From an uncultured bacterium (GTDB lineage Bacteria; Patescibacteriota; Minisyncoccia; Moranbacterales; GWC2-37-73), in contig CAISKQ010000035.1 of NCBI GenBank assembly GCA_903885965.1, forward strand, positions 3,926-67,925: a DNA stretch of 64,000 bases, read 5' to 3'. The notes below the pieces were generated by a model, which made no database searches, was not told where the DNA came from, and saw nothing but the letters and a program-made list of their open reading frames with translations. Shown piece after piece: positions 7,617-33,887 of this stretch. Numbering within the stretch: the first letter of the stretch is position 1; every line of letters starts with the position of its first letter. A program made the translations under genes and the position numbers.

Positions 7617-7647
7617 TTGACAAAAATTCATAATGTGTTAATATAAT
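7617..7647 (+). promoter_or_regulatory. Candidate sigma70-type promoter TTGACA-N19-TATAAT
   Basis: Consensus hexamers. The -10 overlaps the TTG codon proposed as ORF start at 7648, which argues for the ATG at 7687 as the true start. Confidence 0.4.
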
Positions 7648-7686
7648 TTGAACCTTAATATATTAAGATATTGTAATATAAGCGAT

Positions 7687-8742
7687 ATGAAAAATGTGAT
7701 TACTGAAGAAAAAAAGGCTCCAGTAGAAAAGGGATTCTTTTCTGCGGCCTTAAATGCGATTATTTGCGATTTATCAATGAGGTCGCAGGAAATAATTTTT
7801 AGTCGCTATGGTATTCATGGAGACGGAGCACTGACTCTTGAGGAAATAGGTGGGAAATATACCATCACCAGAGAACGGGTCAGGCAAGTCATTAGAGAAG
7901 CTTTGAAAAAAGTTCGAGAAAAAAACAATCATCCTGAATTTGTGAAAGTTCGAGAAATTGTTATTTTGGCTATTGCAAAAAACAGTGGTATAATTAGCAG
8001 GAAGAAACTTCTGGAGGTTCTTGGAAATGATAATCTTGCTGAACAGGCTGCCGTTCGTTTTTTTCTTGAATGTATTAATCAAATCAAGAGTCATGAAGTT
8101 AAAGGAGAATTATCTTTTTCTTATGCGCTTTCCGATTTTGATATTGAACATTGGCGCAAAACTAAAAATGCAACTTTGTCAGTCTTGAAAAAAGAGAAGA
8201 AGCCTTTGACAGCAGAAGAACTTTTTGAATTCGCAGTTGGCGAGTTGGAAAGCGATTTAAGCAAAGATCATTTTGTTTATCACCTTGAAATTTCACAAGA
8301 AATAAAGCAAAATAATTTTGGCAAATGGGGCGCTATCAAATGGAAGGAAATTTCACCTAAAGGCACGCGCGAAAAGGCCTACCTTGTTCTCAAGGAAGCA
8401 GGTAGCCCGCTTCATTTCAAAGAAATTGCAAAAAAGATAGACAAGCATCACCTCAATAAGAAAAAAACTCATCCACAGACAGTTCACAATGAACTAATTA
8501 AGGATAGTAATTTTGTTTTGGTTGGTAGGGGAATTTACGCACTTTCAGAATGGGGTTATCAAAAAGGAACCGTGAAAGATGTTATCAAAGAAATTATTCT
8601 GAAAAATTCAAAATCATTAAATAGAGATGAAATTCTGAAAAAAGTTCTCGAAATCAGACAAGTCAAGAAATCTACAATTGTAATAAACCTCAACAATTTT
8701 TTTTCCAAGTCAAAAGATGGTTTATATTGCCTCAAAAAATAG
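7687..8742 (+). CDS. DNA-binding protein with a sigma-70 region-4-like HTH (N-terminal) and a HARE-HTH-like winged helix (C-terminal)
   Basis: 'LTLEEIGGKYTITRERVRQVIREALKKVR' resembles sigma70 region 4.2. The C-terminal 'HFKEIAKKI...FVLVGRGIYALSEWGY' resembles the HARE-HTH of the RNA polymerase delta subunit. The ORF track gives a TTG start at 7648; ATG 7687 is preferred. Confidence 0.55.
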   Translation: MKNVITEEKKAPVEKGFFSAALNAIICDLSMRSQEIIFSRYGIHGDGALTLEEIGGKYTITRERVRQVIREALKKVREKNNHPEFVKVREIVILAIAKNSGIISRKKLLEVLGNDNLAEQAAVRFFLECINQIKSHEVKGELSFSYALSDFDIEHWRKTKNATLSVLKKEKKPLTAEELFEFAVGELESDLSKDHFVYHLEISQEIKQNNFGKWGAIKWKEISPKGTREKAYLVLKEAGSPLHFKEIAKKIDKHHLNKKKTHPQTVHNELIKDSNFVLVGRGIYALSEWGYQKGTVKDVIKEIILKNSKSLNRDEILKKVLEIRQVKKSTIVINLNNFFSKSKDGLYCLKK

Positions 8743-8839
8743 ATAAGTGGCGCTGGAAACTATATAATTGTTATTGAATTTGTAAACCTGAGGCGAACTT
8801 CTATTTCGCTAAACAATAAAAACAGCAAACATAAAAATC

Positions 8840-10120
8840 ATGGATATTATTTCAAGCTCACTGAATGAAATTATTGCGTCCACAAAAATGGCAGGGCAAG
8901 TTTTCGGTTATGTGTGGTTTTTTATCTTACCCCCAGTTTTCTATTTCTTGTTTAAAACTCTTTGGATGTATCATGTTCAAGAAGCTTTTTGGGCCTCAGC
9001 TAGCTGGGTAGTTTTAGAAATAATTCCTCCCAAAAATATTGAAAAAAGCCCGAAACCCATGGAATCTCTTTTTGTGGGTTTTGCTGGTGTAGAAAAAAGC
9101 TTTAACACGCTTGAGGAATTTGTCGAAGGTGGATTTCCGGATTACATGAGTTTTGAGATGGTCAGCGATCAAGGTTCGGTGCATTTTTATGTGCGCTCGA
9201 TGAAAAAATATCGTCATCTAATTGAGGCTCATCTTTATGCTCAATATCCTGACGTGGAAATCGTTGAAGTGCCAGATTATGTTGATAATGTACCTAAGCT
9301 TGTTCCTAATTCTCAATGGGACCTTTGGGGTACTGACATAGCAATGACAAGAGATCATGATGCTTACCCGATTCGAACCTATCCAAGTTATGAAGAATCA
9401 GTAAGTGGGACCATGATTGATCCTTTGGCAGGATTAATTGAAGTTATGGGAAAGCTTGGGCCAGGTCAACACAGTTGGCTACAATGGGTAATTTCACCAG
9501 CTTCTCCAAAATGGAATAGCACGGTCGGAAAAATGCTCGTAGAAAGGCTCAAGGGAAAAGAAAAAAAGAAGGTAGGTATTTTAGATACGATGTGGAAAGA
9601 TTTATTAGAAGTTTTTGGTAGCATATTTAAATATCTCAGCGCACCCGTTGAATTTGAAGGTGAGAAGAAAAAGGATGAGCAGCCACTGGACACACGTCTA
9701 TCTCCAATGGAAAGAGATGTGCTCAAAGCTGTTGAAACAAATTTGGGAAAAATTCAATTTTCTACCAAAGGCAGATTTATTTATCTTGGCAGACGTGAGA
9801 ATTATGACAAATCACTCGGCGTCTCCGCTTTTTGGGGAGCTTTAAAACAATTCGGCGACGATAATTTGAATGGTTTCAAGCCAGATGGAGATTCTAAAAC
9901 TTTTGCAAATTATATTTTTAAAGTTTCACGTTTGAGATATCGGCAACGAAAACTTTTCCGCAGATATAAGAACAGAAGTAGGGATGGGGTCACAACAGTA
10001 TTAAGCAGTGAGGAACTGGCTACAATATATCACTTGCCAGATATGAATGTTATGGCTCCATCAATTTCACGAGTTGAAGCAAAGCGTGGTGGCGCACCTT
10101 CAAATTTGCCAATTGAATAA
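8840..10120 (+). CDS. Membrane protein (N-terminal TM helices) of unknown function, immediately upstream of the TraD/TrwB-like ATPase
   Basis: Hydrophobic N-terminal segments 'VFGYVWFFILPPVFYFLF' and 'SWVVLEIIPP'. Soluble remainder with no recognised domain. Confidence 0.45.
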   Translation: MDIISSSLNEIIASTKMAGQVFGYVWFFILPPVFYFLFKTLWMYHVQEAFWASASWVVLEIIPPKNIEKSPKPMESLFVGFAGVEKSFNTLEEFVEGGFPDYMSFEMVSDQGSVHFYVRSMKKYRHLIEAHLYAQYPDVEIVEVPDYVDNVPKLVPNSQWDLWGTDIAMTRDHDAYPIRTYPSYEESVSGTMIDPLAGLIEVMGKLGPGQHSWLQWVISPASPKWNSTVGKMLVERLKGKEKKKVGILDTMWKDLLEVFGSIFKYLSAPVEFEGEKKKDEQPLDTRLSPMERDVLKAVETNLGKIQFSTKGRFIYLGRRENYDKSLGVSAFWGALKQFGDDNLNGFKPDGDSKTFANYIFKVSRLRYRQRKLFRRYKNRSRDGVTTVLSSEELATIYHLPDMNVMAPSISRVEAKRGGAPSNLPIE

Positions 10121-10135
10121 GCTAGCTGCTAGCTT
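10119..10135. repeat. Perfect palindrome AAGCTAGC-T-GCTAGCTT overlapping the stop codon of the membrane-protein gene; further TAGCT repeats follow
   Basis: Seen directly in the sequence. The short palindrome is unlikely to be an RNA hairpin (1 nt centre), so a protein-binding site is more plausible. Confidence 0.3.
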
Positions 10136-10201
10136 CATTAGCTGTTAGCTTTTAGGAAGTAAAATAATTTTTTTCAATAATTTCTAAACGACAACGATCG
10201 T

Positions 10202-12238
10202 ATGAATAATAGTGAAATTGCTTTTTTTGCAAAAACTAATTTTCGAAATCAAGAGAGGGTCTTCGGAATCAAAACCGACGATAGACGAAGGCATATGTAT
10301 ATCATCGGAAAAACCGGTATGGGAAAAACTAACCTGCTGGAAAATTTGGTGGTGCAAGACATTCGCAATGGGCATGGAATTTGTTATATCGATCCTCATG
10401 GTGACACAGCCGAGAAACTGCTCAAAGCAATTCCGACGAACAGAATAAATGATGTTATCTATTTAAATCCTTCCGATCAAAATTTTCCACTGGCTTTCAA
10501 TGTTATGGAATCAGTTGATCCAGATTACAGGCATCTTGTCTCATCTGGACTTATTGGGGTTTTCAAGAAGATTTGGGCCGATTCATGGGGACCTCGTTTG
10601 GAATATATCCTGCGAAATGCAATCTTGGCACTTTTGGAATATCCAGGCAGCACATTGCTCGGAGTGACTCGAATCTTGGTGGATAAAAAATATCGAGAAA
10701 GAGTAGTTGATAAAGTTACTGACCCAGTAATCAGACAATTTTGGGTGGATGAATTCCCGAAATGGAGCGACAAAGTTTTGCAAGAAGTCGTCTCGCCGAT
10801 CCAAAACAAAGTCGGTCAATTTCTTTCAAGTTCACTCATTCGAAACATCGTTGGTCAAACTCAGTCATCTTTTGATATTCGAGATATTATGGATTCTCGG
10901 AAGATCCTTATTTTAAACTTGTCCAAGGGGCGTATCGGAGAAGACAACAGTGCGCTTTTGGGGGCTATGATGATCACGAAAATTCAGCTAGCTGCCATGG
11001 GTCGCGTTGACATTGAAGAAGACACCCGAAATGATTTTTATCTTTATGTGGATGAGTTTCAAAACTTTGCTACAGAGTCATTCGCAAACATCTTATCGGA
11101 AGCTCGAAAATATCATCTTAATTTGATTTTAGCAAATCAATATATTACCCAGATTGATGAAAAAGTTCGCGATGCCATCTTTGGTAATGCCGGAACAATA
11201 GTTTCTTTTCGCGTTGGCGCAATGGATGCAGAATTTTTGGAAAAGGAATTCGAACCAGTTTTCATGCAAAATGATATTGTCAATTTGCCGAAATATAACG
11301 TGTATCTGAAATTGATGATTGATGGTATTGCAGGGGATGCATTTTCTGCAAAAGTTTTACCGCCGGTACGTATTGAAGATACAATAGAAAATGAGCAGAA
11401 AATAATTGCTGCCTCAAGAGAAAAATATGCCTCAAGCAAAGATGAAGTTGAGGATAAAATCTCAAGATGGTCAGGGATTATGCCAGCAGCTGGCTTTCAG
11501 ACTGTTAATAAGCCACCCGTGGCTTCATATGGCCCGAACCCAGTCATTATTCAGCAACAGCAGCGCCCTCAGCAGGCTTATGCGTCTCAAACTCAACCAG
11601 GGTCAAATCCAAGGCCCATGGCGCAACCAGTGTTTAATTCTGCCCCTGTCAGGCCTCAGCAGGCCACTGTCGCCCAGAAGGCGCCCTTAGTCAATCAGCC
11701 ACAGCAATTTCAACAAGCTCCGGCACCCGTGACTAAACCTCAAGTGCAACCCATTGAGGAAAATCAAGATTATTACGTTAAACCGATTGACACCCGGCCT
11801 AGGTTTGATGCTATTTGTGATATGTGCAATGATCATATTCAAGTGCCATTTCAACCAGACGGATCGCGTCCAACTTTTTGCAAAGATTGTTTAAAGGAAT
11901 ATCAGCGCATGACTGCCAAAGAAAAACTTATGCAGGAACAAAAAATGCAGCGACAACACGAAGATAAACAAGGGGATGAATATCAGCAACAACCAGCTGC
12001 GCAGCCAAGCAGGATTCCTCGACAGGAGGTTCCACGGGTAACGCCGCAACCCACTAGCGAACCTGCTCAAAAAAATGTGCAGCAAAAAACCTATGCGCCG
12101 CAAGAAAGACCTATGTCACTTTCGCAGATGCAATATATTGCTCCAAAAAAATTCAACTCGCAGCGTCAACGGCCGAATGTAAATTTGGATGAAGTTCGCA
12201 GTTTGATAAATTCTTCACAGCAAAGAAGGGAAGAATAG
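10202..12238 (+). CDS. TraD/TrwB/VirD4-like (type IV secretion coupling-protein family) P-loop ATPase with a Q/P-rich C-terminal region and a terminal CxxC...CxxC zinc-ribbon-like motif
   Basis: Walker A 'IIGKTGMGKT' followed by 'YIDPHGD', and a DExx-like 'LYVDEF'. Residues ~430-600 are low-complexity Q/P-rich. The C-terminal 'CDMCNDH...FCKDCL' is zinc-ribbon-like. Confidence 0.6.
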   Translation: MNNSEIAFFAKTNFRNQERVFGIKTDDRRRHMYIIGKTGMGKTNLLENLVVQDIRNGHGICYIDPHGDTAEKLLKAIPTNRINDVIYLNPSDQNFPLAFNVMESVDPDYRHLVSSGLIGVFKKIWADSWGPRLEYILRNAILALLEYPGSTLLGVTRILVDKKYRERVVDKVTDPVIRQFWVDEFPKWSDKVLQEVVSPIQNKVGQFLSSSLIRNIVGQTQSSFDIRDIMDSRKILILNLSKGRIGEDNSALLGAMMITKIQLAAMGRVDIEEDTRNDFYLYVDEFQNFATESFANILSEARKYHLNLILANQYITQIDEKVRDAIFGNAGTIVSFRVGAMDAEFLEKEFEPVFMQNDIVNLPKYNVYLKLMIDGIAGDAFSAKVLPPVRIEDTIENEQKIIAASREKYASSKDEVEDKISRWSGIMPAAGFQTVNKPPVASYGPNPVIIQQQQRPQQAYASQTQPGSNPRPMAQPVFNSAPVRPQQATVAQKAPLVNQPQQFQQAPAPVTKPQVQPIEENQDYYVKPIDTRPRFDAICDMCNDHIQVPFQPDGSRPTFCKDCLKEYQRMTAKEKLMQEQKMQRQHEDKQGDEYQQQPAAQPSRIPRQEVPRVTPQPTSEPAQKNVQQKTYAPQERPMSLSQMQYIAPKKFNSQRQRPNVNLDEVRSLINSSQQRREE

Positions 12239-12383
12239 CAAGCCATTGCTTGAAAGAATATGGAAAAAGATGCGTAGAACTGATTATGTGCAAGTATATC
12301 TATATTGAATTGAATTAAGCAACAAATTTAAGAAAATAAATCTGATTCTTTCTAAGAGACTCAAATCTTATTTAAAAGAGTGT

Positions 12384-12605
12384 ATGAAAAATAAGTTTTT
12401 AACTTTTTTGTTAATAATTGGCTTGCCAATAGTTGTTGTAGCTATTATTTATATTAACCTTTCCAAAAATTCAAGTCAGGACGCTGCAAGTCCAGCTTCC
12501 TCATCGGTCAGTAGTAGCACTTCCTCCAGTCAAAAGAGTTATGCAACATCTACACAATCAACAAAAAATTCCGCACAACCGACAAAAAGTACGCGTGTTT
12601 CCTAG
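12384..12605 (+). CDS. Small signal-anchored Ser/Thr-rich protein
   Basis: 73 aa. Hydrophobic N-terminus 'FLTFLLIIGLPIVVVAIIYI' then a low-complexity S/T-rich tail, followed by a clean terminator. Confidence 0.35.
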   Translation: MKNKFLTFLLIIGLPIVVVAIIYINLSKNSSQDAASPASSSVSSSTSSSQKSYATSTQSTKNSAQPTKSTRVS

Positions 12606-12625
12606 GAATTAGTAGACATAAGATT

Positions 12626-12668
12626 AAAACATCTCACTAATATAACAGTTGAGATGTTTTTTGTATCG
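12626..12668 (+). terminator. Rho-independent terminator (AAAACATCTCA / TGAGATGTTTT + T-run)
   Basis: 11 bp perfect stem, 13 nt loop, then TTTTTTG. Confidence 0.6.
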
Positions 12669-12721
12669 CATAACTGGCAAATCTGATATAATAAATAACA
12701 TAAATACAAATATATTAATAT

Positions 12722-13792
12722 ATGAATCGGAAAATAATCGAATTAACTTTGAGTATATTGACAATGGTTTTTGCATTTATATCTTGGTGGTCTGTTGCTC
12801 GAATCTTTGATGTTTCCGGTGCAAGTAGTTGGACGTCTTCAATGATATCTTTTATATTCTATCTTGTCTTGATTTGTTTGGATATTGCATTATTTACTGA
12901 TATTGTTTTGCTAGAACTATTGTTGACTGGTTCTCTAGTCTTGGGCGTGGTCTTTACGGGTAGCTTGTGGCATCTTTTGGGTGCAATTATTGGCAGTTAT
13001 TTTTTGTTTTTATCTTCTCGAAAAATTCGTCGAGATTTTAAATTGAACGTGAAAATTGATTTTCAAAAATCACTTCGGGCTGGAAAGGCAATGATGATTC
13101 TAGCGATTTCACTTGTTATTTCAGTTCAATATTTTTCGATTGTGAATCGGCTCGATGGTCAGATACTAATTCCGCGCATGGCGATAGGTGGTATTTCCAG
13201 TAAGATTGCTCTTAAGATTTTATCTTTAACCGATCAAAATTTTAAATCACTGGAAAATGCGAACATTACAGTCGATGACTTTATCCTGCAAACTCAAAAA
13301 AATCAAATCGCAAAGCAAAATTTGCAAACTTCTGATTCCAGTGTTTCTCAAATGGTTGAGCAGGAATTGGATAAACAAAACATATCTCCAGCTGATCGTG
13401 AGCAACTTCGAGCTCAAGCAGCTGATAAAATAAATAATTTAAATTCGCAGATTAACAGCGATGAGCAAGCACTCATATTGAAGGGTGGGAGAGATCAACT
13501 ATCAACACTTGTTGGTAGAAACGTTCAAGGATCTGAAAATGTTTCAAACGTCATGGCAGAACTTGTTAGCAAAAAAATTGAAAATACTTTCACTCCTAGC
13601 GTCACTGGGCAGCAGCGCTCATCTTCTTTTGCGGGAGTACTTGCTGGGATATTATTCTTCACTGTCCTTTCTATTGGCTCTTTGCTAAGTTTCATTTTTT
13701 TTGGTCTGAGTTGGCTAATATTTTTACTTTTAACTAAGTTTAAATTTATTGAAATCAAAACGATAACAGTCGAAAAGGAAATAATCTTGTAG
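12722..13792 (+). CDS. Membrane protein with central coiled-coil/Q-rich region, unknown function
   Basis: Multiple hydrophobic segments at both ends with a polar Q/N/S-rich middle; no recognised domain. Confidence 0.45.
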   Translation: MNRKIIELTLSILTMVFAFISWWSVARIFDVSGASSWTSSMISFIFYLVLICLDIALFTDIVLLELLLTGSLVLGVVFTGSLWHLLGAIIGSYFLFLSSRKIRRDFKLNVKIDFQKSLRAGKAMMILAISLVISVQYFSIVNRLDGQILIPRMAIGGISSKIALKILSLTDQNFKSLENANITVDDFILQTQKNQIAKQNLQTSDSSVSQMVEQELDKQNISPADREQLRAQAADKINNLNSQINSDEQALILKGGRDQLSTLVGRNVQGSENVSNVMAELVSKKIENTFTPSVTGQQRSSSFAGVLAGILFFTVLSIGSLLSFIFFGLSWLIFLLLTKFKFIEIKTITVEKEIIL

Positions 13793-25106: not shown

Positions 25107-26429
25107 ATGTCAAGCGCAAAAAATAAAAAAACAAAAAATAACATCACTAAACTTGCTTTTCGAGGTAGTATTTTTTTGGCGATTGTATTTTTTGCAGTAA
25201 TCTCAAAAGAAAGAGCCGCTGCTACGGACACGACCATTCCTGTCACCAGCGATGCACAAGCAAAAATTAATGAACTTAACAGTCGAGCTGCTATCTATCG
25301 TCAAATTATTGACATCAAGAAAAAACAAAGCGAAACATTGGGAACCAAGATTTCTTCAATGAATTCAACTATTCAAGATGTGAAAGCTCAAATACGAGAT
25401 ACTGGAAGCCAAATTGATGATCTTAATGCTCAAATTGCAAAGCTTGAAAGCCAAATCAATGAAAAAAAAGCACTCATAGTCTCAAATAAGGAAGTGCTGA
25501 CTCAAATGATTCAGTCATATTATCAAATTAGTCAAACAAGTCCTGTTGCAATATATCTTTCAGATGACACTCTGGCATCATTCATGGTTAACGAGGATCG
25601 CATTTCTCAAACTGGAGACAAGATAAATCAAATGATTGAAACACTTAAAGATTTGAAAGCCAAAATTCAAGTTCAGAGCGATGAATTAGCAGGCAGAAAA
25701 GCTGACGTAGTCAGTGCTCATCAGGATTTACAAAGCAAAAGTGATAACTTTGAATCAATAAAGAAGCAGCAAACAGCGCTTTTAGTGCAAACACAAGGTG
25801 AGCAAGCTCAGTATTCGCAACTACTCAAAAATATCCAAGAACAGAAAGCTCAATTGTTGGATATTGACCAATTTTTTGCAGCTAGCGGTTTATCAGCATC
25901 ATCATATCCGAAACCAGATTCAAAATATTTCGCATCTACTAGCTGGTATTTTTCACAGTGGGATTCTAAGTGGGGAAATATGACAATTGGAAAAACAAAA
26001 ACATTGATGAAAAGTTATGGATGCGCCGTCACCGCAGTAGCTATGGTTTTCAAAGAACACGGTGGCTCAATTACTCCTGGCATGCTTGCAAAGGAATCAA
26101 TATTTTCAGGAGATCTTATTAATTGGCCAGCCACCTGGAATAGCCCTAAGTTAAGCTTGAGTAATGACGGAAAATCACACAAAAATATTGATTGGTCAAT
26201 TATCGATACTCAAATTGCTAAAAATATTCCTGTGATTGTATATATCGGGAAATCAAACGGATCAGGTGGTCATTATGTGGTGATTCATCATAAGGATTCA
26301 AATGGAAAATATGTTGTCCATGATCCATATTTTGGAGCTAATATTTTCCTGGACACCTCCAGAGCTCTTATTGGCGCTATGGGCTCAAGTGGTTCTACCT
26401 ATGTCGATCAGATGATTATTTATAACTAG
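25107..26429 (+). CDS. Secreted coiled-coil protein with a C-terminal C39-like (YvpB-type) cysteine peptidase domain; PcsB-like putative cell-wall hydrolase architecture
   Basis: N-terminal signal anchor, long heptad-like coiled coil, and a C-terminal 'SYGCAVTAVAMVF...GGHYVVIHH' Cys/His pair as in Peptidase_C39_2. Confidence 0.55.
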   Translation: MSSAKNKKTKNNITKLAFRGSIFLAIVFFAVISKERAAATDTTIPVTSDAQAKINELNSRAAIYRQIIDIKKKQSETLGTKISSMNSTIQDVKAQIRDTGSQIDDLNAQIAKLESQINEKKALIVSNKEVLTQMIQSYYQISQTSPVAIYLSDDTLASFMVNEDRISQTGDKINQMIETLKDLKAKIQVQSDELAGRKADVVSAHQDLQSKSDNFESIKKQQTALLVQTQGEQAQYSQLLKNIQEQKAQLLDIDQFFAASGLSASSYPKPDSKYFASTSWYFSQWDSKWGNMTIGKTKTLMKSYGCAVTAVAMVFKEHGGSITPGMLAKESIFSGDLINWPATWNSPKLSLSNDGKSHKNIDWSIIDTQIAKNIPVIVYIGKSNGSGGHYVVIHHKDSNGKYVVHDPYFGANIFLDTSRALIGAMGSSGSTYVDQMIIYN

Positions 26430-26480
26430 GCGGATGGTACTTTATATATATGACAGTCTTTTGATAATTAGTTATTTTAA

Positions 26481-26508
26481 AATACCCAATATGCTTGGGT
26501 ATTTTTTG
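26481..26508 (+). terminator. Rho-independent terminator (AATACCCAA-tatgc-TTGGGTATT + TTTTTT)
   Basis: 9 bp perfect stem, 5 nt loop, T-run. Confidence 0.65.
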
Positions 26509-27323
26509 TTGTCACATTTTTAGATGTAAAAGGTTGTGCGACACTAAAGTGGGTAAGTCATTGAGAAGAGGTGGTTGTATTTTCTGAATCCTAATCATGG
26601 CCGTAAGTTGCATTTGAAAGCGGTATTAATTTGAGATTTCCAATTGCTTTGATATGTGCTTAATTAAATCTATCATGCGCATATGTAAATTGGATTTTGT
26701 CGAAAAATATTTTTTTTAAAAATAATTATAAATATAATTACAAATTTGAATTTCATTGGCAAAATTTTAGATGATCCAAATCATTGAATTAGCTATATAT
26801 TTATCCTTAGAATAGCTTTTGCATAAAATGTGATACTTGAGTACCAAAAATGAATTATATGTCAGCAAAGGGTCAATATTTGGACCAAAAATAGCTAAAA
26901 ATCACCCAAAAAGACGCTCAAAATAATGGCTTATCTGAGCCAAAAAACGACGCTCAAAATTGACCTGCAAGGGGCCTTGGATTGAGAAGTGATACACTTA
27001 TACCACTACATATGGCTTATTTAAAGCTCAATTTTGGCCTAGGCATAATATTGATAAAAATATAAAAAGAAAGGGATATAGGTTAAGGAAATAAATAGAA
27101 AGCGAGCTAAATCTGAACTATTAATGGGTATGTAGGTGAGTGGGTAGTTACTGATGTATAAGTAGCTATATTATTGTAAACAGTTAAAGCTTCGAAGATG
27201 TGGTAGCATCTGTAAAATTGAATAATGCTTAGTAGGGACGCAGTTAAATTAATACTATGTCGTGAAAGATATATTGTGCGACGTTGTCTATAAAAACAAA
27301 ATAACAGTCACCTAACCCATTAG

Positions 27324-27710
27324 TTATTTTTTGTCTTGATAATTTTTAATGGCGGCATGCAAAGCATCAGCGGCAAGGTTACTGCAATGCATTTTTGCCG
27401 ACGGAAGACCACCCAACTCTTCAGCAACGCTTTTATTGGTGATGGCAAGTGCTTGCGAAATTGTCTTTCCTTTTGCTAGATCAGTAGTCATTGAGGAGGT
27501 TGAAATTGCTGCTCCACAGCCTAGTGTTTCAAATTTAACATCTTTAATTATTTCTTGCCCTTTTTTGTCTTTTTTAACCTTAATATAAAGACGCATAATG
27601 TCTCCACATTTTGGATTACCGACGGTTCCAATGCCATCAGCATTTTTAATTTTTCCCTGATTGTGAGGACGCGTAAAGTGCTCCATCACTTTTTTGGTGT
27701 ATTTTTGCAT
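27324..27710 (-). CDS. Fe-S cluster assembly scaffold protein (IscU/NifU N-terminal domain family)
   Basis: Three conserved Cys in 'NPKCGD', 'LGCGAAI' and 'HCS'. Confidence 0.85.
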   Translation of the reverse strand: MQKYTKKVMEHFTRPHNQGKIKNADGIGTVGNPKCGDIMRLYIKVKKDKKGQEIIKDVKFETLGCGAAISTSSMTTDLAKGKTISQALAITNKSVAEELGGLPSAKMHCSNLAADALHAAIKNYQDKK

Positions 27711-27716
27711 ATGTTT

Positions 27717-27825
27717 CTACGAATTACGAATTTTTACGAATGTACTAAGATGAAATAAATTATAGATTATTTTTTAACTGAAAACGAATCGAATTCGTAC
27801 ATTCGTACTCATTCGTAATTCGTAG
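27717..27825 (-). repeat. Long intercistronic hairpin filling the whole nifS-nifU gap (29 bp arms, 3 nt internal mismatch, 51 nt loop) built from TACGAA/TTCGTA units
   Basis: 27717-27745 pairs with 27797-27825, checked base by base. The 3' arm ends 6 nt before the nifU start codon. Confidence 0.6.
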
Positions 27826-27828
27826 TGA

Positions 27829-29052
27829 TTACCTAAAGTCTGCTAATACGTTACCGGATATTTTTCGAAGACGTTTTACGACTTCCTTAGTTTTAGTGAT
27901 AACGATATCCAACTCTTTCTTTGTGGTGTGCTTGCCAATTGTCAGTCTTAAACTTCCATGAGCTTGTTCATGTTTGAGTCCGAGTGAAAGCAGGACGTGT
28001 GATGGATCGAGCGCTCCAGATGAGCAAGCAGAGCCTGTGGATGCTGCAATTCCATCCAAATCAAGTGAGAGGATTAAGCCTTCGCCTTCAACATCGTCAA
28101 AACGAAAGTTAGCATTATTGGGAGATCTTTTCTCGGCAGAGCCATTAAGATATGACTTAGGAATTTCTTTCAAGACCTTCTTGATAAGATAATCCCGCAA
28201 TGCGGTTATTTCTTTGATATCTTTTTGCGTGGCTGGCGTTTTGATGGCGTTAATTGCTTGTCCCAAACCAACGATTCCTGGCACATTATGGGTTCCGGCG
28301 CGCATTTTGTATTCCTGGTCTCCACCATCCTGAATGCGCTTAATTGGAGTTCCTTTGCGAACATACAAAAGACCAACTCCTTTGGGTCCATAAATCTTGT
28401 GCGCTGACATTGAAAGCAAGTCGACTCCGATTTCATCAACATCGCAATTAAAATAATTGATTGCCTGTGTGGCATCAGTATGAAAAGAAATCCTTGGTAA
28501 TTTTTCCGTCGCTCGCTCAATGTTAATTTTTTTGAGTAATTTTCCGATTTCAGCAATTGGTTGAACAGTGCCAATTTCATTATTTACATACATCACGGAA
28601 ATCAAGATGGTATTGGCAGTAATAGCTGCCTTGATGTCTTTAACTGAGATAAGTCCTTCTTTGTTAGGAGAAATAAAGGTAACATCGGCAAGTCCATCTT
28701 TTTGGGCAAATTTGCATGCATCAAGTACGCAGTGATGTTCAAAAGCGGTAGTGATAATGTGAGGTTTCTCAGTTACCTTTCTAGTAATAGAATTATACGA
28801 ACGCAAACTCCCCTTTACAACTAAATTATTACTTTCAGTTGCGCCTGAAGTGAAAATAATTTCAGAAGGACTGGAGCGAAAAAATAAAGCTGCTTTTGCT
28901 CGAGCGTCATCTACTGCCTCCAGCGCCTCTTGCCCAAAACCATGCACACTCATAGCGTTACCAAAATTTTCGGAAAAATATGGCAGCATAGCCTCTAAAA
29001 CTTTTTTATCCACTGGTGTGGTGGCAGCGTAGTCTAAATATATTTTTTTCAT
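27829..29052 (-). CDS. Cysteine desulfurase (class V aminotransferase, NifS/IscS family)
   Basis: PLP-lysine motif 'SMSAHKIYGPKGVG' and active-site 'GSACSSG' loop. Confidence 0.9.
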   Translation of the reverse strand: MKKIYLDYAATTPVDKKVLEAMLPYFSENFGNAMSVHGFGQEALEAVDDARAKAALFFRSSPSEIIFTSGATESNNLVVKGSLRSYNSITRKVTEKPHIITTAFEHHCVLDACKFAQKDGLADVTFISPNKEGLISVKDIKAAITANTILISVMYVNNEIGTVQPIAEIGKLLKKINIERATEKLPRISFHTDATQAINYFNCDVDEIGVDLLSMSAHKIYGPKGVGLLYVRKGTPIKRIQDGGDQEYKMRAGTHNVPGIVGLGQAINAIKTPATQKDIKEITALRDYLIKKVLKEIPKSYLNGSAEKRSPNNANFRFDDVEGEGLILSLDLDGIAASTGSACSSGALDPSHVLLSLGLKHEQAHGSLRLTIGKHTTKKELDIVITKTKEVVKRLRKISGNVLADFR

Positions 29053-29839: not shown

Positions 29840-30964
29840 ATGCGTATTTCGTACTCAGCTTTTGACACCTATCAAAATTGCAGCTTGAAATATAAATTTC
29901 AAAATATTGATAAATTAAAAGAGCCAAAATCAAAAGAGGCGGTTTTCGGAACCCTTGTGCATAGCACAATGAAATATATTCATTCCCCAGCATTAATCCC
30001 ACCAAAACTTGAAGAAGCTTTAGCATATTTTTCTAAAGATTGGAATAGTGACGTATTTGAAAATGAACTTGAAGAGCGAAGTGCATTTTCTCAAGGCGTA
30101 GCAATGATTCAAGATTATTATAAAAAAAATGATCCTGCTCAATCCATTGTAGTTGATTTGGAAAGTCGTTTTGCCATCGAGATAGGCACTGATAAAAATA
30201 AACACATCATTTCTGGCATCATTGACCGCATCGACAAAACTGAAGATGGCTATGAAATCATTGACTATAAAACCACCAAGAAAATGCCTTCACAGGAAAA
30301 AGTCGATAATGACTTGCAACTCTCTGTTTATTTAAACGCATTTTTGGCTCGTTATCCCAAAGAAATTGATCGCCTCGATAAAATCACTGTCAGTCTTTAT
30401 TATCTCAAACATGGGGTCAAACTTTCTTCAACCAGAACTCGCGAGCAACTGGAAAATTCCAAAAAACTTTTCTTGGATGTGATTGCTTTAATTGAGGAGG
30501 GAAAATTTGAGCCAAACGTAACTCCGCTTTGCGACTGGTGTGGCTTTCAAAAATTTTGTCCGATGTGGAAACATAAATTCAAGGAAGAAAGAAGAATTGA
30601 TAGTCAAGAAGTGGAAGCTGCTATCAGTGACTACATAAACCTTAAATCAGCAATCACTTCAACTAAATATCAATTAGCAGAACTTCAAGAAAAAATTTCG
30701 CAATATATGCAGCAAGAAGGTGTTGATCGAGTTTTCTCCGATGAAGGAATTATCGCCCAGACTCTTCGCAAGACCTATAAGTATGACAGTGCTCAACTTC
30801 GTGACATCCTGGAACCGCTCGACAAATGGGAGGCAGTTCTGAAAGTTGATGGCATAGCTCTTCGAAGCGTCATGAGTGTCCTCTCCCCTTCCGCCCGCAA
30901 GGATGTCGAAGCTGCCAAGATTTTGGACAAAGAAACGAAGGGTTTTAGCGTGAAAAAGAAATAA
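29840..30964 (+). CDS. PD-(D/E)XK nuclease family protein (RecB-nuclease/Cas4-like, with Cys cluster)
   Basis: 'IIDYKT' (D/E)xK motif. One N-terminal Cys plus a C-terminal 'CDWCGFQKFC' cluster, as in AddB/Cas4 iron-sulfur nucleases. Confidence 0.65.
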   Translation: MRISYSAFDTYQNCSLKYKFQNIDKLKEPKSKEAVFGTLVHSTMKYIHSPALIPPKLEEALAYFSKDWNSDVFENELEERSAFSQGVAMIQDYYKKNDPAQSIVVDLESRFAIEIGTDKNKHIISGIIDRIDKTEDGYEIIDYKTTKKMPSQEKVDNDLQLSVYLNAFLARYPKEIDRLDKITVSLYYLKHGVKLSSTRTREQLENSKKLFLDVIALIEEGKFEPNVTPLCDWCGFQKFCPMWKHKFKEERRIDSQEVEAAISDYINLKSAITSTKYQLAELQEKISQYMQQEGVDRVFSDEGIIAQTLRKTYKYDSAQLRDILEPLDKWEAVLKVDGIALRSVMSVLSPSARKDVEAAKILDKETKGFSVKKK

Positions 30965-30966
30965 AT

Positions 30967-31701
30967 TTAAAATTTCACAAACTTTTCCCACTTCTCAAAA
31001 AGTTTTTTAGTGGCCAGCAGATCACCAACGTTATATCTGGCAATGTCGAAAAATCTTTTTTCCAGGAAAAGTTGGCCAACTTGATCGCCAGAAACTCCAT
31101 TTGCCTTGGGACTTTCAATGCCAAAGGCTCGAGAGAAAAGATGCAGGCTTCCCTTTCGACGAACTGCGCCGTAAAAAGTCAATTGATCAAGCAAATCAAC
31201 ATGCTTGGCATTTTTTGGCTGGCTCGAGAGGTAGCGGTTGGCCATCAGATTTTTAGTTGGTCTGACGCCGAGAATAGCACTTCGCAGAAATAAGTATGGC
31301 ACATCAAATGTTCGGCCATTGAAACTAATGAATTCCTCATATTTTTGAGCTAAATTCCAAAACTGCTCAAGCATTTCTTTTTCACCTAGAACCCTGAATT
31401 TTATGTTATCTTCTTCACTATCAGTGATATCGGCATCTGGCGCTTGAAAATAAACAGCTCCCTTGTCTTTTTCAACATCATAAACTCCAATTGCCGCAAT
31501 TTGTCCCGTCAATGGAGAAAAACAAAGTCCATTTTTGATCTCCAGAAGCTGTTTTTCAGCTTCTTCTTCTGATTGCGTCAGCTTTTTAACCCAACGCGTC
31601 AAAGACTCTTGCGTAGTCTCGTCCAGACTATCAAAATCTTCCCCTATTGTCTCAATGTCAAATACTAGTTTACTCATATGCTTTTTGTATAGCATACTCA
31701 C
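30967..31701 (-). CDS. RNase H-like 3'-5' exonuclease related to the PolB exonuclease domain (DEDD type)
   Basis: 'VFDIETIG' Exo I motif, 'FNGRTFDVPYL' Exo II-like and 'YNVGDL' Exo III-like motifs. Confidence 0.55.
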   Translation of the reverse strand: MSMLYKKHMSKLVFDIETIGEDFDSLDETTQESLTRWVKKLTQSEEEAEKQLLEIKNGLCFSPLTGQIAAIGVYDVEKDKGAVYFQAPDADITDSEEDNIKFRVLGEKEMLEQFWNLAQKYEEFISFNGRTFDVPYLFLRSAILGVRPTKNLMANRYLSSQPKNAKHVDLLDQLTFYGAVRRKGSLHLFSRAFGIESPKANGVSGDQVGQLFLEKRFFDIARYNVGDLLATKKLFEKWEKFVKF

Positions 31702-33356: not shown

Positions 33357-33887
33357 TTAATGAATAAGTTTTTTGAGTTTGTGATATAGCTCAGTTTTTT
33401 CCTTAGACTTTTCAAGCTCAGCTATGACATTTTTGATTTTTTCTTTTTGCCTGCGACTTGAATTAGCAACAATATTTTCAAGCAAAAGTTCTGGCCAATA
33501 ATAAGCCGGGAATCTTTTTTTGATTGACCCCCAATTCTCACCAATACCGACTTGCTGTTTGTCATTATTTTGATTAATTTTTTTCTTAGTGCGGGCAATA
33601 GCCTTCTGATAGCCCTCACCTGAAATCTTTAGCCACTCTTGCACGCGAGCAATGGTTGAGGAGCTAACAAGCAATTGCTCCTCAATTTCGCCATAGGTAC
33701 TGCCGCCGATCAAATACTCCGCAATCTTTAGTCTTTTGGCGATCATTTCTGATTCTTGATATGAAAGCAAATCTCGCAGGAGCTCCGCAGCCTCGTTAGG
33801 ATCTTTGATTTCAGAAATTGCTAAGCAAAGTTGGTATAAAATTTTATCAATTTCCTTTTTTGAAAGTTTTGAATTGAATTTAGCCAT
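33357..33887 (-). CDS. YerC/YecD family TrpR-like DNA-binding protein (second paralog)
   Basis: TrpR-like helix-turn-helix 'STYGEIEEQLLVSSSTIARVQEWL'; 176 aa with a longer C-terminal tail. Confidence 0.6.
   Translation of the reverse strand: MAKFNSKLSKKEIDKILYQLCLAISEIKDPNEAAELLRDLLSYQESEMIAKRLKIAEYLIGGSTYGEIEEQLLVSSSTIARVQEWLKISGEGYQKAIARTKKKINQNNDKQQVGIGENWGSIKKRFPAYYWPELLLENIVANSSRRQKEKIKNVIAELEKSKEKTELYHKLKKLIH

Follow-up and report, generated by a model that had tools for sequence, protein, structure and literature searches.

We identified a split coupling-type ATPase in the genome of an uncultured bacterium of the Patescibacteriota (Moranbacterales; NCBI GenBank assembly GCA_903885965.1). 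The genes lie in a stretch of 64,000 nucleotides of contig CAISKQ010000035.1, which was analyzed as a whole and is called the window below. Two consecutive genes, at 8840-10120 and 10202-12238, are, as judged from their sequences, the two halves of one functional protein that occurs as a single chain in other lineages. The first encodes a membrane-anchored domain of the DUF8128 family (PF26449), and the second encodes an ATPase related to type IV coupling proteins (T4CPs). They are preceded by the gene for a protein, here called sigHARE, in which a sigma-70 region-4 domain is combined with a HARE-HTH domain. The most likely function of the split ATPase is that of a hexameric translocase of nucleic acids, or of a receptor for substrates, docked at the membrane. 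We are highly confident in the anatomy of the split ATPase and regard the DNA-translocase or receptor mechanism as tentative; for anatomy and mechanism taken together, we estimate a probability of roughly 0.5. An initial annotation of this DNA had grouped these three genes with two further open reading frames (ORFs) into a five-gene module, and all five plus-strand ORFs were found where it had placed them. Public assemblies contain identical copies of the window proteins, with metagenome-assembled genomes of Moranbacteria as the closest relatives that carry a name. The features of the three genes are as follows, with nucleotide positions in the window and residue positions (aa) in the proteins.

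7687-8742, plus strand: sigHARE, 351 aa, soluble, with Sigma70_r4 and HARE-HTH domains
7771-7920 (aa 29-78), plus strand: sigma-70 region-4 domain of sigHARE (Pfam Sigma70_r4, 3e-11)
8371-8553 (aa 229-289), plus strand: HARE-HTH winged helix of sigHARE (Pfam, 9e-17)
8840-10120, plus strand: DUF8128 (PF26449) protein, 426 aa, with one N-terminal transmembrane (TM) helix
8897-8977 (about aa 20-46), plus strand: TM helix of the DUF8128 protein
10010-10039, plus strand: EELATIYHLP motif in the C-terminal part of the DUF8128 protein
10097-10117, plus strand: PSNLPIE motif at the C-terminus of the DUF8128 protein
10202-12238, plus strand: T4CP-type ATPase, 678 aa, without TM segments, with TrwB_AAD_bind, TraG-D_C and a zinc ribbon
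10307-10330, plus strand: Walker A motif GKTGMGKT, within IIGKTGMGKT
aa 107-217 of the ATPase model, plus strand: helical insert between Walker A and Walker B
11039-11056, plus strand: Walker B motif YLYVDE (sequence YLYVDEF)
about aa 430-528 of the ATPase, plus strand: Q/P-rich linker
11795-11899 (aa 532-566), plus strand: treble-clef zinc ribbon CxxC-x17-CxxC of the ATPase (domain search)
C-terminus of the ATPase, plus strand: conserved basic tail

The evidence that the two genes encode one protein came from natural fusions. A profile of concatenated DUF8128 and ATPase-domain sequences from 15 loci was run against the protein collection and detected at least 120 natural single-chain proteins of 824-1067 aa, in which PF26449 was followed by PF10412 and 98-100% of the concatenated query was covered; every one of the best 120 matches to this profile was such a fusion. 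Their sources included Jacksonbacteria, Berkelbacteria and other Patescibacteria. The fusions surfaced only with the concatenated profile, and none was present among the top 150 representatives of a search with DUF8128 alone. An assembly or gene-calling artefact is an unlikely source, given at least 120 clusters of diverse origin. The fusion junction had the form ...LNTEELATIYHLP...(about 25 aa)...APVNLPIE...I.FFAQTNFRN..FGIK.DDR.RH.Y.IGKTGMGKT, and the end of the window DUF8128 protein (...SSEELATIYHLP...GAPSNLPIE*) together with the start of the window ATPase (MNNSEIAFFAKTNFRNQERVFGIKTDDRRRHMYIIGKTGMGKT) was collinear with it. The spacing between the EELAT motif and Walker A in the fusions was 69-98 residues, with a median of 73. 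The first residues of the window ATPase aligned with residues 105-140 of DotL and with TrwB from residue 118 onward, and the protein begins exactly at the start of the soluble part of a classical coupling protein. Because natural collinear fusions exist (Rosetta-stone evidence), we regard the pair as one split protein; the 426-aa product, which had been annotated as an independent membrane partner, would then be the N-terminal domain of that protein in detached form. Along the chain, an N-terminal TM helix is followed by a DUF8128 domain of ~350 aa, a short linker with PPxNLP at its end, the nucleotide-binding domain including the helical insert, and a tail that varies.

Several variations of this architecture were observed. 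Berkelbacteria-like genomes contained two tandem fused DUF8128-T4CP paralogues (L099 2837-8925; L102 934-6616), which were separated by an ORF of 175-190 aa without family assignment and had no sigHARE gene beside them. One fused homologue (P0393, L097 6001-9159) ended in an S1 (OB-fold) domain where others have the zinc ribbon. The zinc ribbon was present in 46 of 69 ATPase orthologues, and other tails carried a KPGQVIKF-type motif or a basic helix. The C-terminal appendage is swapped between lineages. Long DUF8128 proteins (P0271-P0390) repeated the sequence PPxNLP[IVF] at their extreme C-terminus, preceded by a variable acidic/basic linker that often contained DFDNDYFExRFA. The first PPxNLP copy marks the linker to the ATPase in fusions, and the terminal PPxNLP[IVF] looks like a short linear docking motif.

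We further checked the gene neighborhoods of DUF8128. Counts out of 76, 77 or 80 loci, here and below, refer to the best 80 of more than 587 loci that were detected by a DUF8128-alignment scan of one GTDB representative genome per species; these 80 loci cover many Patescibacteria lineages, and the ORFs called in them were searched with the window proteins. The ATPase gene was located directly 3' of DUF8128 in 72 of the 77 loci with enough sequence, and two more were recovered by tblastn across runs of N (74/77 in total), with a median gap of 16 bp. In 66 of 76 loci, the gene directly 5' of DUF8128 and in the same orientation was that of sigHARE, at a median distance of 51 bp. The adjacency of sigHARE, DUF8128 and ATPase genes is far beyond chance, and the annotated pairing of the ATPase with a preceding membrane protein and a DNA-binding protein proved to be conserved. 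The two remaining ORFs of the proposed module and a promoter-like site upstream of it are the following.

7617-7644, plus strand: promoter-like site, TTGACA-16-TAATAT with TG upstream of the -10 element (consensus scan, 10/12 matches)
12384-12605, plus strand: small S/T-rich single-pass ORF, 73 aa, outside the conserved unit
12722-13792, plus strand: protein of 356 aa, Q/N-rich in its middle part and with five predicted TM segments, outside the conserved unit

Besides another assembly of the same genome, the 73-aa ORF was matched only in the closest relative (L084, 45% identity) and in none of the other 80+ loci, and the 356-aa ORF recurred only in that other assembly (phmmer and tblastn for both) and was absent from relatives with 86%-identical DUF8128, in which DnaJ comes right after the ATPase or is separated from it by a single small ORF. 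The 356-aa protein matched no family of Pfam or NCBIfam, and the 73-aa product had no match in the local Pfam copy. Since these last two ORFs are lineage- or genome-specific, the five genes are not one module: the conserved unit consists of three genes followed by lineage-specific insertions. It is true that all five ORFs run in one direction at short distances with no convincing terminator between them, and that TM segments are predicted in three of the products (a simple hydropathy scan gave none for the ATPase and one, one and five for the 426-, 73- and 356-aa proteins). However, a self-contained device of all five genes that moves DNA or protein across the envelope is highly improbable, as the 356-aa protein is genome-specific, the 73-aa ORF extends only to the nearest relative, and other housekeeping genes follow the ATPase in the 80 loci. 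The conserved part offers one TM helix per anchor protein, which makes a self-sufficient minimal translocation device, as originally suggested, unlikely. As to the candidate promoter reported at the start of the module, the sigma-70-like site at 7617-7644 is a consensus match only and weak evidence, with 28 promoter-like sites in the region compared with 19.7 +/- 4.8 in shuffled sequences. The gene caller started sigHARE at an ATG, but translation might instead begin at a TTG at 7648.

The flanks of the unit differed among lineages, and the trio stayed together. secD-secF genes were directly upstream on the same strand in 46 of the 80 loci (for example, L033 4490-6792 and L049 4730-7844), PheST genes were upstream in Moranbacteria, and MnmA, AlaS, Pgk and others were downstream in various loci. 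No T4SS (type IV secretion system) or relaxase genes were found in the flanks of 80+ loci. The unit is chromosomal, lies in a housekeeping context and is not a mobile element; among 2.9 million viral contigs, only one fragmentary DUF8128 match was detected. This distribution also bears on a role in anti-phage defence, with a HerA/mad8-like ATPase and a sigma-like regulator. Although the ATPase matched the PADLOC mad8 model (3e-18) and, weakly, HerA models, and the sigma region-4 domain matched MzaA, these matches were at the domain level, and DUF8128 and the other neighbors had no PADLOC match; a literature search on mad8 gave no relevant papers. The locus keeps its synteny, occurs nearly universally and shows strong conservation, unlike a patchy or island-borne system, and the single viral fragment likewise speaks against defence, which we consider hardly plausible. 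In the closest relative, genes encoding an N6/N4 DNA methyltransferase and a SWI2/SNF2-ResIII helicase were present after DnaJ (L084 12567-15281), where the window has a CoA ligase; this looks like a restriction-modification-like insertion near the module.

The 678-aa protein was assigned to the coupling-protein family by several methods. Searches with hidden Markov models (HMMs), as the initial annotation had proposed, gave 41.8 bits for PF10412 (TrwB_AAD_bind; cut-off 20.5) and 27.7 for PF12696 (TraG-D_C; cut-off 22), and no match to FtsK_SpoIIIE. A PDB sequence search also placed the protein in this family. An hhalign comparison of the fused profile with TrwB gave a probability of 96% (E 3e-9, 263 columns), compared with 2.7% for TrwK/VirB4, and Foldseek ranked matches to the predicted ATPase structure in the order DotL (4e-10), TrwB (~2e-9) and Cag-beta (2e-8), then HerA, then the C-terminal domain of VirB4 (2e-6). 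All NCBIfam T4CP subfamilies were below their cut-offs, the best being SXT_TraD (50 bits vs 366) and CD1115 (33 vs 250). Other motor families were examined as candidates. An FtsK/SpoIIIE identity was rejected based on the lack of FtsK_SpoIIIE matches in Pfam and NCBIfam and of TM segments and a gamma domain in the ATPase. As for HerA, the DUF87 match covered only 45 residues at the P-loop, HerA fold matches were weaker than those to T4CPs, and no NurA-like neighbor was present. A VirB4 motor was rejected on the hhalign values and on the rank of its fold match below T4CPs. Based on these profile and model comparisons, the protein is best described as a relative of VirD4/TraD/TrwB and not of VirB4, FtsK or HerA, in agreement with the TraD/VirD4-like assignment made earlier, and both sequence motifs on which attention had been drawn (IIGKTGMGKT and YIDPHGD) are present in it. 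Because the family is that of coupling proteins and the pairing is conserved, neither a non-translocase ATPase nor an unconserved, chance neighborhood was found. The two-helix N-terminal TM domain of coupling proteins was absent from the 678-aa chain, the anchor being the separate one-helix DUF8128 protein. Residues G36, K42, D284, E285, R302 and Q313 were invariant in 41 ATPase orthologues, and the ATPase domain was 57-82% identical across loci in which DUF8128 was only 32-57% identical, which indicates strong purifying selection on an active enzyme.

PF26449 was precomputed for a protein identical to the window DUF8128 protein (P0001) and for all 120 homologues among the matches listed; the local Pfam copy gave no DUF8128 match, as this model was apparently not included in it. 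The structure prediction that had been suggested for the 426-aa protein yielded a confident AlphaFold2 model (pLDDT 86.8, pTM 0.83) with a long helix at the N-terminus and an alpha/beta domain after it. In 44 DUF8128 sequences, the mean number of Lys and Arg residues flanking the TM helix was 0.3 before and 1.8 after it, which favors a topology with the N-terminus outside and the C-terminus inside; the globular domain would therefore be cytoplasmic, beside the ATPase. When the model was compared with the PDB, the best matches were TrwK/VirB4 chains (E 7e-5 to 1e-3, probability ~1, TM-score only ~0.33), and VirB4 structures comprising only the C-domain were unmatched. In a viral structure library, it matched phage G gp156 (2e-18), proteins of phages JL and Slash, and phage G gp155 (3e-6). 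Profile comparisons did not detect a relationship to VirB4: hhalign of the DUF8128 profile gave nothing against single sequences of TrwK, TrsD, TrsE and phage G gp155 and 1.2% against a 12-sequence profile of plasmid-derived VirB4 N-domains, and a PDB sequence search with the DUF8128 profile was also negative. The resemblance to the VirB4 N-domain is thus an unconfirmed lead at the level of the predicted fold. A literature search returned no mention of DUF8128 or PF26449.

The first gene of the unit had been described as encoding a sigma region-4/HARE-HTH DNA-binding protein, and Pfam supported both domains. The family profile of sigHARE matched region 4 of primary sigma factors in the PDB with an E value of 1e-20 (many SigA/RpoD chains), and region 4 and HARE-HTH were present together in 32 of 32 orthologues scanned. 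No Pfam match to region 2 or region 3 was found in these 32 orthologues. Since it has only region 4 and lacks region 2, sigHARE is interpreted as a DNA-binding protein and not as a sigma factor; it possibly binds RNA polymerase. A literature search revealed nothing specific on a combination of HARE-HTH with sigma domains, or on TrwB_AAD_bind in the candidate phyla radiation (CPR).

Relatives of the fused protein were also found in Bacillus phages. The fused profile could be aligned from end to end with phage G gp156, over 618 columns (hhalign probability 100%, E 1e-39), and with the 'VirD4 component-like' protein of phage SP8, which is of the SPO1 type, over 621 columns (99.2%, E 2e-19). In phage G (L104, 86975-98198), gp153 (TrbL/VirB6-like), gp155 (VirB4-like, with P-loop_TraG) and gp156 (DUF8128-T4CP) are arranged in a row and, judging from these domain matches, make up a small T4SS-like cluster within a jumbo phage. 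In SP8 (L105), the same ATPase is located between actin-like and Replic_Relax proteins. A 'DNA translocation operon', in which an HTH-relaxase gene adjoins the gene for a coupling ATPase, was previously described in phages 0305phi8-36 and SPO1 (gp27.3/gp27.4); the N-terminal domain of that ATPase was reported to have no TM helices, and deletion of the operon did not affect laboratory growth (Pathria et al. 2012, PMC3357382). SPO1 gp27.4, 0305phi8-36 orf201 and phage G gp156 share with our unit the architecture of a DUF8128-like N-domain and a T4CP ATPase, and the phage ATPases lie next to a DNA-processing gene with an HTH and can be lost without effect on laboratory growth (PMC3357382). However, the phage proteins are fused, and their neighbors are Replic_Relax, VirB6-like, VirB4-like or actin-like proteins, whereas the neighbor in Patescibacteria is sigHARE, for which no relation to the actin-like, TrbL-like or Replic_Relax proteins near the phage ATPases was detectable. 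Moreover, the phage ATPases are only 24-30% identical to the window ATPase, and their function is likewise putative. Because the phage relatives adjoin VirB6-like, VirB4-like or relaxase-like genes, they support a DNA-transfer-type role for the family.

Comparison with known secretion and conjugation systems revealed both likenesses and differences. The window ATPase has the family, the Walker A and B motifs, the helical insert and the TraG-D_C match in common with TrwB (R388), TraD (F), VirD4, DotL and Cag-beta, and differs from these coupling proteins in that their two-helix membrane domain is replaced by a one-helix DUF8128 protein of ~350 aa in its globular part, encoded here by a separate gene. 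The unit also differs from them in being chromosomal and phylum-wide, in a housekeeping context with no relaxase or T4SS genes nearby. In R388, a DNA-binding accessory gene adjoins the coupling-protein gene, as in our unit; we take this pair to be trwA-trwB. The coupling-type ATPase TraJ of pIP501 has no membrane domain of its own and relies on a separately encoded membrane protein, TraI; the pIP501 system is, however, a complete conjugative T4SS with a relaxase, and its membrane partner is small and seemingly unrelated to DUF8128. A layout of membrane helix, N-domain and motor ATPase is common to DUF8128-ATPase and to VirB4 (TrwK) with VirB3, and in TrsD-TrsE of pGO1 a gene resembling an N-terminal domain directly precedes the ATPase gene, as in the window. 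In contrast to VirB4, the motor of the unit is TrwB-like, and profile tests of its N-domain were negative.

The occurrence of such ATPases in the phylum was recently surveyed (Quinonero-Coronel et al. 2025, PMC12102498). According to that survey, 5,713 homologues of VirD4-like T4CPs were found in 2,918 of 3,035 Patescibacteria genomes (96%), only 148 of the 5,713 were near virB4, VirB4 was present in 2,417 genomes (80%), and relaxases were almost absent; its authors suggested that the T4CPs were 'exapted for other functions', adding that exaptation 'cannot be ruled out'. The orphan T4CPs of the survey are probably DUF8128-T4CP genes, and the passages of the survey consulted here contain no description of DUF8128, of split and fused forms, of a sigma region-4/HARE neighbor or of phage relatives. 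Genetic data are available for Southlakia epibionticum (Wang et al. 2023, PMC10633639). In this organism, SEML1_0294 (349 aa; Sigma70_r4 27-72, HARE-HTH 225-283) was essential at all time points, and the adjacent SEML1_0293 (921 aa; TrwB_AAD_bind 402-719) was non-essential by transposon sequencing (Tn-seq), with read values of 5817, 2940 and 1372 that we take to be successive time points. Compared with the window ATPase, SEML1_0293 has an N-terminal extension of 377 aa. T4SS genes are essential in S. epibionticum. A second T4CP/FtsK-like ATPase, SEML1_0142 (1019 aa), was also essential and is encoded just upstream of gyrB-gyrA (PMC10633639); its N-terminal ~380 aa had no domain assignment. ATPases of the SEML1_0142 type may account for the approximately two T4CP matches per genome in the phylum. 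The reported excess of T4CPs over VirB4, the lack of relaxases and the non-essentiality in Southlakia argue against a role of the unit as just the coupling partner of the essential T4SS.

Based on these relationships, a mechanism can be proposed. DUF8128 would replace the two-helix membrane domain of classical coupling proteins and hold the ATPase ring, presumably a hexamer as in TrwB, on the inner side of the cell membrane. There, the ring would bind and pump, or hand over, nucleic acid, most likely DNA. The C-terminal tail and sigHARE would select or present the substrate, in parallel to TrwA and TraM with TrwB and TraD but without a relaxase. Passage through the envelope would use a conduit encoded elsewhere, for which the Patescibacterial T4SS and the competence machinery are candidates; such a conduit would be needed because one TM helix per anchor protein appears too little to line a DNA pore alone.

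Several observations weigh against this reading. The ATPase model, which was built from a less diverse alignment, has moderate confidence (mean pLDDT 60, core 70-90), and DNA is the most likely substrate by family membership, tail domains and neighbors, that is, by indirect arguments. No T4SS, pilus, competence or relaxase gene, and likewise no ComEC, was found in the Pfam-annotated gene lists spanning most of the window, which agrees with the stand-alone position of the ATPase noted in the initial annotation. SEML1_0293 is a probable fused orthologue of the window pair by domain coordinates and synteny. Of the 76 split loci, 10 had no sigHARE gene beside the unit, and the gene was also missing there in five out of seven fused loci (L098, L099, L100, L102 and L103). 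Being essential where the ATPase is not, sigHARE must also act apart from the ATPase. Finally, the recurrent proximity of secD, secF and secG could indicate a protein-related role or just old synteny.

The observations on sigHARE raise the possibility that it is an RNA polymerase-associated factor linked to the ATPase by inherited gene order only, such that the functional unit would be the two-gene split ATPase. The N-terminus of sigHARE is very similar to the part of primary sigma factors that binds the beta-flap of RNA polymerase, region 4, and HARE-HTH is a domain of the delta subunit of RNA polymerase (TIGR04567 match); the essentiality of sigHARE and its absence beside the ATPase in several clades would fit, and secDF is an example of old synteny that has been kept in these genomes. 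On the other hand, the adjacency is kept despite wholly different flanks (in split forms, in the fused clade L097/L101 and in Saccharimonadia), on one strand and with short gaps (median as above), and DNA-binding accessory genes beside coupling-protein genes are the rule in transfer operons. Inherited order alone seems somewhat unlikely.

A T4SS-independent motor that acts on the cell's own chromosome, similar to FtsK, SpoIIIE or TraB, with sigHARE as a recognition module comparable to the gamma domain of FtsK, was also considered. The unit is found nearly universally among housekeeping genes and with high conservation, the partner protein carries winged-helix DNA-binding domains, and T4CPs were found in more genomes than VirB4 in the published survey (96% vs 80%, PMC12102498). 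In addition, the locus is ~15 kb from a switch in GC skew: at 26400-28500 of the window, the skew turns from positive to negative and the genes from all-plus to mostly minus-strand, so that the region looks terminus-like, as would fit converging replication forks. But the probable orthologue is non-essential in S. epibionticum, where the essential SEML1_0142 beside gyrBA is a better candidate for such a motor, ftsK is mentioned in papers on TM7x, no FtsK_SpoIIIE Pfam match was found and the best matches were coupling proteins, and the phage relatives adjoin T4SS-like or relaxase-like genes. A chromosome motor is accordingly an unlikely role.

Sec genes adjoined the unit in three arrangements, including secD-secF upstream even where the sigHARE gene was missing, secF-secD on the opposite strand beside the tandem fused paralogues (L099 9940-12119; L102 7614-9824), and, in another clade, secG four genes upstream of the unit (L098 1449-1670). 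These arrangements would be compatible with a receptor for protein substrates that feeds the essential Patescibacterial T4SS or cooperates with Sec. DotL, Cag-beta and VirD4, which are among the best fold matches or relatives, recruit protein effectors, and Patescibacteria have almost no relaxases (PMC12102498). This reading is quite improbable, however, since the T4SS is essential in S. epibionticum and the ATPase is not, the tails are of nucleic-acid-binding types (zinc ribbon, S1), the conserved neighbor is a DNA-binding protein, and the Sec proximity may be inherited synteny. Thus, among the functions considered, a membrane-docked translocase or receptor for nucleic acid is still preferred. 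A bolder form of it, in which a relaxase-free pump for DNA or nucleoprotein, guided by sigHARE and independent of T4SS, is common to the whole CPR, for instance as a motor for DNA import or export by epibionts, and in which its layout, with a membrane helix, a VirB4-NTD-like domain and a TrwB-like motor, preserves an ancestral VirB4-VirD4 link, is speculative and rather unlikely.

The gene lists, which span most of the window, contained housekeeping genes (PheST, DnaJ, RecJ, ribosomal proteins and CTP synthase) and a surface-polysaccharide cluster, and neither tRNA genes nor Rfam families were detected in the window. A gene for a PD-(D/E)XK nuclease (PDDEXK_1) and a convergent gene for an RNase_H_2/DNA_pol_B_exo2 exonuclease-like protein were located at 29840-31701, just beyond the skew switch. 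Two small proteins of the Trp-repressor family (PF01371) were encoded at 2267-2674 and 33357-33887, both within this 64-kb window of a reduced genome.

Patescibacteria, whose genomes are very small, account for a large part of the diversity of bacteria, yet 96% of the genomes surveyed were reported to contain a coupling-type ATPase, a larger fraction than has a type IV secretion system. What our analysis adds is the tie between the DUF8128 N-terminal domain and these ATPases, their split and fused forms, the relatives in 'DNA translocation operons' of Bacillus phages, and a sigHARE companion that is essential in one genetically tractable species. Interaction partners, the mutant that already exists in Tn-seq pools, and the phage model provide testable handles. 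Should this motor indeed transport DNA with neither a relaxase nor a channel of its own, this would have implications for the exchange or acquisition of nucleic acids by these epibionts, and also for the evolution of the VirB4 and VirD4 ATPases.

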